Source of the DNA: Octopus vulgaris
Lineage: Eukaryota
Assembly (NCBI GenBank): GCA_951406725.2
Contig: OX597820.1
Location: 31,310,001-31,374,000 of the forward strand
Direction of reading: 5' to 3'
Length of the DNA: 64,000 nt
Each line of letters begins with the position of its first letter. The stretch's first letter is position 1. Positions 52,097 through 59,482 of the stretch are shown in pieces. Both the position numbers and the translations under genes were made by a program. The notes under the pieces are model-generated. The model worked only from the letters and a program-made list of their open reading frames with translations. It was not told where the DNA came from and ran no database searches.

Positions 52097-53712
52097 ATGT
52101 TTGTGTATCTGTGTTTGTCCCCCCAACATTGATTGACAACCGATGCTGGTGTGTTTACGTCCTCGTCATCTAGCGGTTCGGCAAAAGTGACCGATAGAAT
52201 AAGTACTAGGCTTACAAAGAATAAGTCCTGGGGTCGATGTGCTTGACTAAAGGTGGTGCTCCAGCATGGCCACAGTCGAATGGCAAACAAGTAAAAGAGT
52301 AAAAAGAGAGAGTAATTACTAAGCTGGTAATTGGGGCATAAATCAACATGTAAGCTTAATGGGAAATTTTCATTTAGATCACCTTAATATGAGAAGTTTG
52401 TGTCATAGAAGATTGGCATCAAAAGAATTAATAGTAGCAAGCCAAGCTTTTGAAGATCTTAGGCTTGAATTTGTGCCAGAAATTCTTTACTTTAACCCTT
52501 TTGTTACCCATATTTTTGTTGGCATACACTAGCTTTGCTTCAATTAATTTTGAAAATAATAAAGAATTTAGTCAAAAGCTGTGGTTGAAAAGTTCAATTC
52601 ATAAACACGTGGTTTCAGGTTCAGTCTCAATGTGGAACACTTTGGGTAAGTGTGTTCTATAAGCATGAGACAACCAATACCCTGTGAGATAATCTGGCCA
52701 ACAGAAACCGTGTGGAAGTTCTTCAGCACCTTAGGCAAGTGTTTTCTGCTATAGCCTCGGGCTGACCAAAACCTTGTGAGTGGATTTGGTAGACGGAAAC
52801 TAAAAGAAGTCCGTCATATATATGTATATATATCTGTAGGTGTGTGTATATGTTTGTGTGTCTGTGTTTGTCCCCTCAACATCGCTTGACAACCGATGGT
52901 GGCGTGTTTACATCTCCGTAACTTAGCGGTTCAGCAAAGGAGACTGATTGAATAAGTACTCGGCTGCCAAAGAGCAAGTCCTGGGGACGATTTGCTCGAC
53001 TAAAGGCAGTGCTCCAGCATGGCTGCAGTCAAATGACTGAAGCAAGAGAAAAGAGAAGAGAAGAGATAGAGGGAGAGAGACTGTGTGTGTGTGTGCGTGT
53101 GTGTGTGTGCGTGTGCGCGCGTGTGTGTGAATGTTTGTTCACCCACCACTGCTTGACAACAAGTGTTACTTTATTTTCCAATACGCTTTGCTGCTTGGCA
53201 AAAGAGAATGACAGAAGGTGGCAAGCTGGCAGAAATGTTAGCACACCAGGCAAAATGCTTAGCGATATTTTGTCTGCCTTTACATTCTGAGTTCAAATTC
53301 CACCGAGAACAACTTTGCCTTTCATCCTTTCAGAGTTGATAAATTAAGTACCAGTTACGCACTGGGGTAGATGTAATCGACTCAATCCCTTTGTCTGTCC
53401 TTGTTTGTCCCCTCTATGTTTAGCCCCTTGTGGGCAATAAAGAAATAAGAGAGAATGACAGAATAAGTGCCAGACAAACAAAAAAAACATATGTGCAAGG
53501 ATCACTTTGACCAAACCCTTCAAGACAGTGCCCAAGTGTGTCTGCAGTTCAGTGACTGAAACAAGTAAAAGATACAAGATAATTAAACTGGTGTCTGGGA
53601 CATAAATTAACTTGGAAATTTGACAGGTTATAATTTAGATCACTTTAAAGAAAGTTTGTCTCATACATCCACGGGCAATTTCAGACAGGCTGGTTGGTAT
53701 CAGAAGGGCAAA
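51779..53712. mobile_element. Nest of two piggyBac-type MITEs split by SINE A and SINE B insertions
   Basis: ttaa|cccttttgttacccatattt starts near 51779 and 52492. The right parts resume at ~52312-52430 and ~53580-53710. SINE A at 51871-52310 and 52725-53060. SINE B at 53217-53449 with a 14-bp TSD agagaatgacagaa. Confidence 0.75.
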
Positions 53713-53766
53713 GCACTTCCTTGGCTAATTTGCTGAATTTAGCTTAATTATATAAATTCACTACCT

Positions 53767-53992
53767 ATTTCTTTATTGTCCACAAGGGGCTAAACATAGA
53801 GAGGACAAACAAGTACAGACAAACGGATTAAGTTGATTACATTGACCCCAGTGCATCACTGGTACTTAATTTATCGACCCCATAAGGATGAAAAGTAAAG
53901 TCGACCTCGGCGGAATTTGAACTCAGAATGCAGCAGCGGACGAAATACCACAAAGCATTTCGCCCGGTGTGCTAACGTTTCTGCCAACTCAT
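53767..53992 (-). mobile_element. Young SINE family B copy
   Basis: Inverted relative to, and highly similar to, the copy at 53217-53449. Confidence 0.9.
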
Positions 53993-54579: not shown

Positions 54580-54643
<64 letters not shown>

Positions 54644-54658
54644 TTATTATATAGAAGG

Positions 54659-54709
54659 AGCTTCTACAGGACTAGTACTGTTTCATTCAAGAGAAATCTT
54701 CAGGAAGCT
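54659..54709 (-). ncRNA. Type I hammerhead ribozyme (outer design, left copy)
   Basis: Exact reverse complement of 59306-59356. Confidence 0.8.
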
Positions 54710-55069
54710 ATTTAACAAGAATTGTATTAGCATTTATACATTTAGGCAGGTTTAAAGGAGTGGTGGTGGGGGACTTTTTGGGGGTAGGCATAGCGCAAAA
54801 TATCATACTTGGGGGAGTGGTCAAGGAGTCAGTGGTAAGTTAGATGAAAGAATAGATAAATAAAAAAATAAAAAAATATAAAAAAATAATAAAAAAATAA
54901 AAAAATAATAATAAAATAAAATAAAAAATAAAATAAAAAAATAAAAAAAATAAAAAATATAAAAAATATATATAAAAAAATATATATAAAATATATATAT
55001 ACAAAAATATATATATAAAAAAAGGGGGGATAGAGTTATAGGTAAATAAGGAGATTCTCACTTATACCT

Positions 55070-55633
55070 ATACACACATGTATACGTATCTACACACACA
55101 TACATACATACACATATATATACACACACATATACATATATACATATATATACATATATATACATACCTACACATACACACATACATACATACAAATATA
55201 CATATACATGTATATATATATACAATCCAATACAGGCCCATTCCCTAATTTTAATTTTATTATCTTCATTTATTACTTTTGTTATCTTTGATCGCTAGGG
55301 CTAAGAATCCTGGCAATGGCTGCATGTCCATTTGTCTGTCTACTAGAAGGCAAGTACTCATTCCCGCACGCACACTCATTAGCACGTACATTCACCCATT
55401 CGTACACTCATACACATACACGTACGCACGCGTTATATTCATACATACAAACATCTACATACGTTCACGTATATACACATACGTACTCGTACCTACAGAT
55501 TCGTGTCTACACTTTAGGAGGCTAGTCTATACATATACACCAATAAATATACATATATATACCCGCATATACATACACACACACACATATGTACTCCTAC
55601 ATACAGATACATACCTATCTATATATATATATA

Positions 55634-55669
<36 letters not shown>

Positions 55670-56177
55670 CATACACATACACACATACATATACACACAC
55701 ATACATACACATATATATACATACACAAACATATATACACACATATATATATACATACACACATACACACATACATACGTATACATACATACATACATCC
55801 ATACATCCATACTTACATGCATTTATACGCATACACACACCCATCTATATATATGTACATATATATATATATATATATACACACACTCACACATACATAT
55901 ACAAATCTACGCACACACATACATACATACACGTATACGCATACACGCACATACACATATACATGCGTACCCATACACGTGCACACACGCACGCGCATCC
56001 ATATATATATACACACACACACATATATATACACGTGTGCAAGCATACATACATACTCATACGCGCACACATACTTACAAATACATATATGCACACACTT
56101 ACACACATATATATACATACACATATACATGCATACATACATATATGCATACATACACACACGCACTCATATATATA
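55070..56177. repeat. Degenerate (CA)/(TA) compound microsatellite field (also 58139-58850 and 60060-61050)
   Basis: Directly visible. It is the source of the spurious H/T/Y/I-rich ORFs. Confidence 0.95.
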
Positions 56178-56542
56178 GGTTATAAAAATGAGATAGGGGT
56201 TGAAAATTCAACCCACCATGGGATAATATATATCCAATATACTGCTAGATAGGTACCCAACAAAAATAATACATAGATGTTAAAAATTGTCAAGCAATCA
56301 GTTCATCTATTGTATTAAATGGGTAAAGGTAATAATATTACCGTAAATTAATACTACAAAATTAGAGAATGGAGAAACATACTTAAATCAGTAAAACATC
56401 AACTATCCGATGATACTCAATCCATACTTTAATACACCATTACATATGAGTAAAGGCAATATATAAAATGAAATGAGATATACAGTAATAGTAAAAGTAA
56501 AAAGATAAAGAGATATAAGTAAAAAATTTCAAATATAATATG

Positions 56543-56680
56543 CAAATAAATCAAAACTGACAGCTGTTTCGGCAGTGAGGACAGTCATACCTCATTTAAC
56601 CTATAAGCCATAAAGGCAGGTATAAATGAGGCATTAACAAGGATGCCCCACGGCCTCTTCAGAGAATTAAATTAAATTTG
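56543..56680 (-). ncRNA. Type I hammerhead ribozyme (inner design, left copy)
   Basis: Reverse complement of 57811-57948. Confidence 0.78.
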
Positions 56681-57011
56681 TTATAATAGTGAAAAATATT
56701 ATATAATCATATACATATAAATATAAAAATATAAAAATGTAAAATATAAAAACTTATATATCATAATGCTACACTTATATAATATAATACACATTTGTAC
56801 AAAAAGGAAGGTAAACAGAACAATATAAAACAAAATATATAACAGTGTATATATTAATATTAATAAGTACCGATATTATACATATTTGGCTAATAGTTTT
56901 TTTTAAAAAAAAAAAAAAAAAAAGGCTAACACATATGGAGATGAAAAATAATAATTAAATCCGTGGTACAGTTCATAAAATTCTAAAGCTATAAAAGTTA
57001 ATAAAAATTAC

Positions 57012-57061
<50 letters not shown>

Positions 57062-57810
57062 TAATAATAATAAAAAAATACTAAAAATAGATACAGTTAA
57101 GTTAGCACCAAGTCCATCCTTTCAAGATCGAAATAACTATGAATTAAGAAATGCTGACCACTAGGTAAAGAAAATTTAGATTAATTCGATTGGCTATTGG
57201 TTTGAAATTTAAATCACAAAAGAAAATTATACGGTTGGTTAGTCAAGGAACGCCAATATTCACACACGCATCTACAGATCAATCGCACATACACACATAG
57301 TTATATGTATATACATACACTTATACACATACAAAATTACAAGCAACAACTAGCACTTAGATAAACAAAAAAGGGAAGCAACTATGCTAACATCTAGTCC
57401 TTCAAAATTATAACTGAGCCTTAATAACAAAAAAAGAACCATCCATGCATTCTATAAAATATTTAATTTAGATATAAATATATTTTTAAATATCAGTATG
57501 TTACTAATTTAGATAATTATTTCATGGGTAACTTAAAATTTATAACACCGGTTTGTTACAGAGTAAACATACGGTTGTTAGGTTTATCGTAAGTTTGTTA
57601 TGATTTTATGTATAATATCGGTACTTATTAATATTAATATATACACTGTTATATATTTTGTTTTATATTGTTCTGTTTACCTTCCTTTTTGTACAAATGT
57701 GTATTATATTATATAAGTGTAGCATTATGATATATAAGTTTTTATATTTTACATTTTTATATTTTTATATTTATATGTATATGATTATATAATATTTTTC
57801 ACTATTATAA

Positions 57811-57948
57811 CAAATTTAATTTAATTCTCTGAAGAGGCCGTGGGGCATCCTTGTTAATGCCTCATTTATACCTGCCTTTATGGCTTATAGGTTAAATGAG
57901 GTATGACTGTCCTCACTGCCGAAACAGCTGTCAGTTTTGATTTATTTG
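57811..57948 (+). ncRNA. Type I hammerhead ribozyme with palindromic minimal stem III and long stem II
   Basis: CTGAAGA (57829-57835); stem II ggccgtggggca...tgtcctcactgcc with an inner stem tgcctcattta/taaatgaggta; GAAA (57921-57924); palindromic acagctgt; GTC cleavage triplet (cut after 57932). Stem I is AU-rich and imperfect. Confidence 0.78.
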
Positions 57949-58137
57949 CATATTATATTTGAAATTTTTTACTTATATCTCTTTATCTTTTTACTTTTAC
58001 TATTACTGTATATCTCATTTCATTTTATATATTGCCTTTACTCATATGTAATGGTGTATTAAAGTATGGATTGAGTATCATCGGATAGTTGATGTTTTAC
58101 TGATTTAAGTATGTTTCTCCATTCTCTAATTTTGTAG

Positions 58138-58176
<39 letters not shown>

Positions 58177-58233
58177 TATACATATATAGACATATATACA
58201 CATACATACACATACATACACACATATACACAC

Positions 58234-58264
<31 letters not shown>

Positions 58265-58479
58265 TACACATACATATATACACATATACATACATATACA
58301 TACACACACACACATACATATATACATATACACTGATACACATACCCATACATACACATGCATATACTTATATCACTACATACTCACATATATAAACATA
58401 TATACATATACACACATACATATATACATGTACATACACATACGTATGCATATATATATATATATACATATATATACAC

Positions 58480-58520
<41 letters not shown>

Positions 58521-58782
58521 TACATACACACATATACATGTATACATACGCGAAAATGATACACATATATACACATACACACACACAGACAGATGCATAT
58601 ACATACATATATATATATAAACTACATATCTATATAAATACATACATAATACACATATACACACACATATATATACATTCATGCATATACATATACAAGT
58701 ATACATACACATACATACACACACACGCGCACACATACATATACACACACACATATATATACAAATACATACATACACACAT

Positions 58783-58821
<39 letters not shown>

Positions 58822-59305
58822 CATGTACACATATACATATGTATATATATATCAACAAGGGAGGGTAAAGTTAATTAGTTATTAATCAATTTCATCAAGT
58901 GTTCAGTATGTAAAGGGACCATTATTATTTTGAGTAAACAATGTTAGAGGGAAAAAAATTCTCTAAGTAGTGGAAGAGGCTAAAAAACTTTATTGGCTGC
59001 TATTTCTAGAAAGTTTAGTATGTGGCAAAGTAATTTATTTTATTTTCCTAAGCCCTAATTATATAATATTTTATACATACATACACATACATAAGCACAT
59101 ACATTTACACATACATATGCATATACATATGCATATGCTTACACATATTTTTATTTATCTATTCTTTCATCTAACTTACCACTGACTCCTTGACCACTCC
59201 CCCAAGTATGATATTTTGCGCTATGCCTACCCCCAAAAAAGTCCCCCACCACCACTCCTTTAAACCTGCCTAAATGTATAAATGCTAATACAATTCTTGT
59301 TAAAT

Positions 59306-59356
59306 AGCTTCCTGAAGATTTCTCTTGAATGAAACAGTACTAGTCCTGTAGAAGCT
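59306..59356 (+). ncRNA. Type I hammerhead ribozyme (compact, 51 nt)
   Basis: agcttc-CTGAAGA-t[ttc tctt gaa]t-GAAA-cag tactagtc ctg-TA-gaagct: 6-bp stem I, short stem II, 3-bp stem III with an actagt palindrome in the loop, GUA cleavage triplet (cut after 59350). Confidence 0.8.
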
Positions 59357-59439
59357 CCTTCTATATAATAAATTAATTTTACTCTGCTATGTATTGAGTA
59401 CCTTACTTACTGTGGTTAACCCCGAATCAACCCGGGACC

Positions 59440-59482
<43 letters not shown>

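Follow-up and report, generated by a model that had tools for sequence, protein, structure and literature searches.

Nested inverted copies of two Penelope-like elements with predicted hammerhead ribozymes in the genome of Octopus vulgaris

Layout of the locus

Here, we describe a compound repeat locus in a 64,000-nt stretch of the Octopus vulgaris genome (assembly GCA_951406725.2, contig OX597820.1, positions 31,310,001 to 31,374,000 of the forward strand), which we refer to as the window and number from its first letter. The locus is composed of pieces of two Penelope-like elements (PLEs), A and B, arranged as one inverted pair inside another. The inner arms (56353-56884 and 57607-58138) are 532 nt each, 100% complementary, and 722 nt apart, exactly as described in an earlier reading of the sequence (the original prediction). 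The outer arms (54642-54869 and 59145-59373) are near-identical, as that reading had it, with 227 of 229 aligned columns matching (1 mismatch and 1 gap), although their length is 229 nt and not ~224 nt. One arm of each pair extends into a 3′ tail (59374-59442 in A; 56352 down to 56177 in B), and (TA)n adjoins all four outer ends, the left end of B with only 4 units; both features had been foreseen, as had the lack of an open reading frame (ORF). The long frames inside the locus are microsatellite read-throughs rather than coding ORFs, and a tblastn search of the window with the A protein gave no match.

We aligned the window with L140, a natural tandem ORF-bearing copy of A that served as the reference. 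The arm-spacer-arm layout originally proposed stands as far as the inverted pairs are concerned, but the 722-nt "spacer" is 3′ untranslated region (3′UTR) sequence of B, and the left A "arm" belongs to a 2.5-kb A copy and forms its end; this copy runs through 56177 and resumes at 58139-59147. The tail-less end of this copy lies at 54642, adjoining (TA)n, and its part beyond B resumes in L140 exactly where the left part ends. The A flanks around B are A's own 3′UTR, 98 to 99% identical to the ORF-bearing copy. Moreover, the (TA)n tract that holds B has 19 units in the uninterrupted L140, which bears out the earlier proposal of one element inserted into an internal (TA)n tract of the other, here B into A; a target-site duplication is unreadable within such a tract. 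No ORF is seen locally because the A copy starts ~350 nt, and the B copy ~1,180 nt, past the respective stop codon. The features of the locus are as follows.

54642..56177, − strand: element A main copy, 3′ part (microsatellite-rich 3′UTR and pseudo-long terminal repeat [pLTR]); 1508/1526 columns identical to the L140 inter-ORF region
54659..54709, − strand: predicted hammerhead A, left copy; predicted cut triplet ends at 54665
56170..58168, no strand: B target, an internal (TA)n tract of A; 4 units left and 15 right of B
56177..57612, − strand: element B main copy (3′UTR including the 722-nt "spacer," pLTR, and 176-nt tail); 96 to 99% identical to ORF-linked L061-L066
56557..56664, − strand: predicted hammerhead B, left copy; predicted cut triplet ends at 56559
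57607..58138, + strand: element B inverted tail-less arm; ~6 nt overlap with the B main copy at the joint
57827..57934, + strand: predicted hammerhead B, type I; predicted cut triplet ends at 57932
58139..59147, − strand: element A main copy, 5′ part, split off by B; 957/976 columns identical to L140
59145..59442, + strand: element A short inverted arm, pLTR and 69-nt tail (59374-59442), then (TA)n
59277..59284, + strand: match to the TATA-box consensus, 29 nt before 59306 (first base of helix I); mirror copy at 54738-54731 (−)
59306..59356, + strand: predicted hammerhead A, type I; predicted cut triplet ends at 59350

Parent elements of the two families

Both arms are high copy: the 40 scored matches to each in a genome search were ~100% identical, in line with the young age that had been proposed. 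Exact core patterns of the hammerhead motifs occur genome-wide 4,050 times for A and 1,754 times for B and its close relatives. Because reversed control patterns occur 0 times, these core matches are not due to chance. Matches to B lie in tandem ~5.57 kb apart with an ORF for a reverse transcriptase (RT) and a GIY-YIG endonuclease between them (unit, ~5.58 kb), and A flanks a different RT and GIY-YIG ORF both upstream and downstream (unit, 5.19 kb). Each element occurs as many near-identical full-length ORF-bearing copies. Copy number and ORF linkage had been suggested as a check on the proposed Penelope-like origin, and both came out in its favor.

The original prediction had taken the arms to be non-autonomous PLE or retrozyme-like families. 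Stand-alone families of this type, mobilized in trans, would fit a locus that itself lacks an ORF, as well as the common occurrence of very short A palindromes that contain only the ribozyme. However, ORF-bearing copies match all parts of the locus at 96 to 100% identity in their 3′ region, the 5′ ends form a continuous range (up to 4.7 kb), and the A mini-palindromes begin at helix I, without the upstream TATA box. Non-long-terminal-repeat retrozymes are similar in that their type I hammerhead derives from PLE pLTRs, but they form head-to-tail non-coding tandems (bioRxiv 10.64898/2026.07.22.740005), whereas the units here are head to head and tied to ORF-bearing parents; tandem ribozyme repeats like those of retrozymes were not seen here. 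With no tandem non-coding units, and with the sequence tied to ORF-bearing copies, we rejected a retrozyme identity and consider stand-alone families highly improbable. Both elements at the locus are 5′-truncated copies of ORF-bearing elements.

Most copies of the ORFs are interrupted in the assembly. Among 30 loci per element, ranked by their likeness to a broken query, the A frame (~712 amino acids [aa]) is unbroken in two (L084 and L097) and the B frame in none, the latter counting against an intact B element. The recurrent breaks are confined to C runs, and identical runs are affected in most A loci and in all 30 of the B loci, as might be expected of real programmed frameshifts or dead copies. 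However, copies with a substitution inside the C run stay in frame (L084, L097, L123, and L127), and the 120 homologues listed are mostly single proteins of ~700 aa. Short-read contigs from 4 runs of 4 studies (X1, X4, X7, and X9) were also aligned to B copy L109. For X1 and X7, the whole of the listed depth had an extra C at both B breaks, and one 2,902-nt X1 contig spans both breaks. In X9, the extra C made up all of the listed depth at the first break and ~44% at the second. In X4, it made up ~47% at the first break and almost none at the second, where these contigs mostly agree with the assembly. We read the frame breaks as mostly assembly errors, with X4 counting against this, and regard programmed frameshifts or dead copies as very unlikely.

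The B protein, present in two assembly frames, is ~945 aa with Asn-rich inserts. In L116 (3026-4357), there are two such stretches (22 to 25% N) of ~100 to 130 aa between the thumb and the endonuclease; A is without them. The A and B proteins are 40% identical over 501 aa. Thus, of the two unrelated designs that had been postulated, the ribozymes do differ, but the elements are related. The best database relatives of A are 38 to 53% identical, mostly ~700 aa, and unnamed, and searches of Pfam and of PDB sequences with the A and B proteins returned nothing significant.

Classification

A and B have the general features of PLEs that encode an endonuclease (EN+): a single RT and GIY-YIG ORF, partial tandems with pLTRs, an inverted 5′-truncated copy, a one-sided tail, and a hammerhead motif. 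Within PLEs, the Hydra clade is characterized by a C-terminal endonuclease, RWK and DKT motifs, a CxCX5C linker, CxxC and CxH motifs, insertion into (TA)n, and hammerheads, according to the available text of PMC8557442. The ORFs of A and B carry YRDD and YIG motifs as well as a GIY-YIG endonuclease at the C terminus. Both also have DKT, the CxCx5C linker, and CxxC..E and CxH around conserved E and N; both insert into (TA)n; and neither has GxKF/Y. RWR is found in both where Hydra has RWK. One point weighs against this placement: the units of 5.19 and 5.58 kb are ~2× the <3 kb typical of Hydra, which is a tendency and not diagnostic. We considered and dropped Naiad/Chlamys, which have an N-terminal GIY-YIG and DKA, as opposed to the C-terminal endonuclease and DKT of A and B. 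Placed by these motifs, with likeness to the published alignment judged by eye, A and B are assigned to the Hydra clade.

A Hydra-clade element from a cephalopod, Hydra-1_Obim of Octopus bimaculoides (2,507 bp, with a (TA)n preference and a hammerhead), is already listed in the supplement of PMC8557442. The kind is therefore already catalogued in cephalopods, and the earlier suggestion that it may be missing from such catalogues is not supported at the clade level. As far as the available text describes them, Hydra-1_Obim and its clade resemble A and B in their C-terminal GIY-YIG, DKT, CxCx5C, CxxC, and CxH motifs, (TA)n targets, and 3′ hammerhead, and in forming tandem and inverted copies with a tail at one end. 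The design of hammerhead A, with its U.U-based helix II and 4-bp helix III, likewise has counterparts among Hydra ribozymes (PMC8557442, File S2). In contrast, complete Hydra families there are 2.1 to 2.7 kb long, compared with 5.2 kb (A) and 5.6 kb (B), and their tails are 30 to 40 nt, compared with 69 nt (A) and 176 nt (B). Also different are the 3-kb 3′UTR of A, which is two-thirds microsatellite, the Asn-rich inserts and 89-nt helix II of B, and RWR in place of RWK. The proteins and ribozymes of A and B are clearly distinct from those of Hydra-1_Obim when compared by eye, so A and B look like other families.

For O. vulgaris, the available text of PMC13282606 puts the number of recently active Penelope-like families at 31 and gives no detail of clade or ribozyme. 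Our search of the literature turned up no account of either family, of PLE 3′UTRs laden with microsatellites, or of starts at helix I; outside that search lay the PMC13282606 library, Repbase, and Dfam, one of which may already list A and B as "Penelope." On the whole, they are probably two undescribed Hydra-clade families.

Predicted hammerhead ribozymes

A scan of both strands of the window with a type I hammerhead descriptor gave exactly four matches, one per arm and all facing outward, in agreement with the four cores first described. The suggested check against hammerhead models came out only in part, since an Rfam scan had no hammerhead among the 150 matches listed, which were dominated by microsatellite noise. 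The four arms carry hammerhead motifs, and a ribozyme role is predicted from the motif.

In hammerhead A, helix I is 6 bp, helix II is 3 bp with a U.U at its base, and helix III is 4 bp with an 8-nt loop. Hammerhead B has a 2-bp helix I, an 89-nt helix II, and a minimal palindromic helix III. When folding was compared with that of shuffled sequences, B scored a z of −4.0. Across 18 copies of B from several subfamilies, 97% of helix II cells are paired and 4 pairs are changed on both sides, compared with at most 2 in slid controls; these sequences are related, the structure was drawn from the same set, and helix III was fixed by the search pattern. This covariation is moderate evidence in support of the predicted B fold. 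Several observations count against functional ribozymes: hammerhead A folds no better than shuffles (z of −0.2), helix I of hammerhead B is limited to 2 bp, and the change U4C is found in three copies related to B. One copy lacks the core.

The B design has precedents. According to the available text of PMC4209133, Drosophila virilis PLE hammerheads with a short helix I and a palindromic helix III have low in vitro activity. The minimal PLE hammerheads described there for D. virilis and other animals share with B the 2-bp helix I, a large bulged helix II, and a palindromic helix III suited to dimers, but helix II of B is far longer (89 nt, in two stacked helices).

Variant cores were also observed. 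A B-related subfamily (L185, L196, and L197) has CCGAAGA for CTGAAGA (U4C) with helix II covarying, and one A subfamily carries CTGATGA.

Inverted pairs and their tails

To assess the tails, 40 regions on contig C1 were chosen from match lists by spacing and strand, with their ends unseen. These comprised 33 simple divergent pairs, one of which (L316) was cut by the end of the stretch, and 7 tandem, single, or triple arrangements that were not counted. Exactly one arm is tailed in 32/32 assessable pairs (21 A and 11 B), and 13 further pairs judged by eye have the same pattern. Together with the (TA)n at their ends, these pairs bear out the proposed (TA)n targeting and the inverted arrangement of pLTRs with a tail on one side. 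The longer arm can be either of the two, and both can cover the same 3 to 4.7 kb, indicating two separate cDNAs rather than one that folded back.

Inversions of this kind could also arise as fold-back artifacts of long-read assembly. The assembly does have homopolymer errors in these repeats, and the joints of the locus are known here from the assembly only. Such artifacts, however, would have to account for asymmetric arms, with a tail on one side in 32/32 pairs with different joints, and for an A main arm of 2.5 kb opposite a short arm of 0.3 kb. Furthermore, both 3′ ends recur, with TA next to them, in independent short-read runs. We consider an artifact extremely improbable.

The smallest pairs are palindromic A insertions of ~200 bp (L153/L154, L160/L161, L162/L163, L286, L291, and L297) with two ribozyme motifs head to head. 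In these minimal palindromes, the joint lies at the AGCT of helix I and one arm is tailed; there are 6 exact joints in the first 100 core matches.

5′ ends at helix I and at the predicted cut site

The 5′ ends of A copies pile up at helix I. Of the first 30 A core matches on C1, 14 have their start within 59302-59309, and in 10 the match extends to exactly 59306; in these counts, paired arms are not independent, and shorter copies are invisible to the search pattern. Both arms start at 59306 in 5/22 pairs, and their cores are 2 nt apart in 2 more. The TATA match at −29 is kept across A subfamilies. When the base before 59306 follows TA, it is G in 13 cases, C in 9, A in 2, and T in 19 genome-wide; with cases templated by the neighboring arm removed, 8 G, 4 C, and 2 A remain, the 19 T being uninformative. 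Cap copying is known from LINE-1, and the extra G is a weak hint of it here.

Three other readings of the pile-up are stalling of the RT, snap-back of the cDNA, and a splice acceptor. As cDNA, helix I can pair with itself (6 bp, including the palindrome AGCT), the bases upstream of it resemble a 3′ splice site (pyrimidine tract and YAG), and the 5′ end of helix I coincides with an intron end in D. virilis Penelope (available text of PMC4209133). In addition, several B 5′ ends lie inside helix II. These readings leave unexplained the conserved TATA match and the non-palindromic joints that also begin at 59306, often after a G that neighboring sequence does not account for, and 62 joints have no common upstream exon beyond that G. 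Two further points weigh against a transcription start: of the 10 starts at exactly 59306, 6 belong to palindromic joints, whose 4-nt overlap makes the end less distinct, and B has no comparable hotspot, its 5′ ends being scattered, some clustered 500 to 585 nt upstream and some inside helix II. On balance, we favor a start of A transcription at helix I as fairly probable and regard stalling, snap-back, or splicing as unlikely, if far from negligible.

A second cluster of A 5′ ends lies at the predicted cut site. In a 3-nt window there, 24/30 sampled of 197 loci are truly truncated (~158; confidence interval [CI], 121 to 182), compared with 5/20 sampled of 251 for the three bases downstream (~63; CI, 22 to 123) and 9/20 sampled of 99 for the window upstream (~45; CI, 23 to 68). 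This modest enrichment would fit cleavage but is suggestive only, because a 6-nt microhomology explains 7/24 of the cut-site truncations and many join through TA.

At three shorter palindromes (L219/L220, L232/L233, and L239/L240), both arms start at the predicted cut site, and short AT-rich filler lies between the arms.

Proposed insertion mechanism

We conclude that the locus very probably consists of two 5′-truncated inverted insertions of two Hydra-clade PLEs, B lying in the (TA)n of A, each likely twin-primed from two fixed RNA sites. The identity of the parts, the ORFs, the copy numbers, the nesting, the one tail per pair, and the overlapping content of the arms were observed directly, and we infer that twin priming from two sites on two strands explains them.

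In the mechanism we propose, a tandem copy would be transcribed from its upstream pLTR, in the case of A from the TATA promoter, with the first base of helix I as +1. The GIY-YIG domain would then cut both strands of a (TA)n target. Downstream of the ribozyme, the RNA would have two internal sites, separated by 69 nt in A and 176 nt in B, from which two cDNAs would begin, primed with a 2- to 4-nt A/T overlap to the target. Two RNA copies would serve as templates because both arms cover the same region. The cDNAs would stop independently, often at the 5′ end of the RNA, and be joined head to head by microhomology. Most templates would be uncleaved, with a small minority cut by the ribozyme.

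A related mechanism has been described for a Poseidon PLE, in which the tail is bounded by two internal RT start sites, both target strands are cut and extended, a dimer is predicted, and uncleaved RNA is the main template (available text of PMC11167929). Poseidon-Ac (PAc) of Anolis thus resembles A and B in its two internal start sites bounding the tail, its AT-rich target, and its use of both strands, as well as in the template. PAc belongs to another clade, however, and its ribozyme overlaps the start of the ORF, with the RT start sites inside the ORF, whereas ribozyme and start sites all lie upstream of the ORF in A and B. The 2- to 4-nt A/T overlap with the target is usual in A and B in comparison with PAc, and the available text on PAc reports no ends at the cut site, where A has its modest excess.

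Taken by itself, the locus amounts to ordinary PLE debris, but both families are young, abundant, and apparently intact. They provide a natural data set and candidate enzymes for studying how tandem and inverted PLE copies with a tail on one side arise, and they bear on whether PLE hammerheads cut in vivo; the one-tail-per-pair rule and the 5′-end pile-ups are testable signatures.

Nesting and microsatellite load

The inter-ORF region of A is 3,040 nt, of which 2,016 nt is tandem repeat with 13 (TA)n tracts of at least 6 units. The 2.6-kb 3′UTR of B is 76% AT with little simple repeat. A also nests in A at L069/L070. This site (G000:C7:109382000-109397900) is a PLE nest of ~15 kb made up of a full A, A pieces in its 3′UTR, and a full B.

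A special partnership between A and B is unsupported. None of 60 B loci has internal A 3′UTR segments within 1.5 kb at high identity; the B loci had one 76% match to such segments and one neighboring A mini-palindrome. With 0/60 B loci in A segments, the nesting described here looks like chance use of a shared (TA)n target.

It is possible, and we propose this only tentatively, that A sows its own targets. Each long copy would bring in as much as 2 kb of compound microsatellite, including a dozen (TA)n tracts that both A and B would then use; transcription of A would begin at the first ribozyme base, and thousands of young copies would record cap-ended, ribozyme-cut, and twin-primed cDNAs. If so, the copies would be an in vivo readout of the PLE insertion mechanism and of the role of the hammerhead. 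An element that both targets and carries (TA)n is a plausible source of microsatellites in a repeat-rich genome, though a small one at ~4,000 mostly short copies, and microsatellite-laden PLEs are easily misannotated as simple repeats. The remaining interest lies in the microsatellite-laden 3′UTR of A, the long-helix ribozyme motif of B, and clean end statistics for the PLE mechanism.

Neighboring elements

Some B copies lie directly beside other PLE-type RT/GIY-YIG ORF fragments with a different cysteine linker (L066:8418-9735 and L065:6959-8500), which we take to be Neptune-like. Near other PLE copies (L062:9241-9741, L075:5565-6489, and L077:8223-9899) are what we assume to be mariner-like transposase fragments and a 559-aa RT frame of the long interspersed nuclear element type. 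The window itself holds a second inverted pair at 53224-53447 and 53766-53989 (224 nt, 85% identity) that is unrelated to PLEs and presumably represents two diverged copies of an abundant octopus short interspersed nuclear element.

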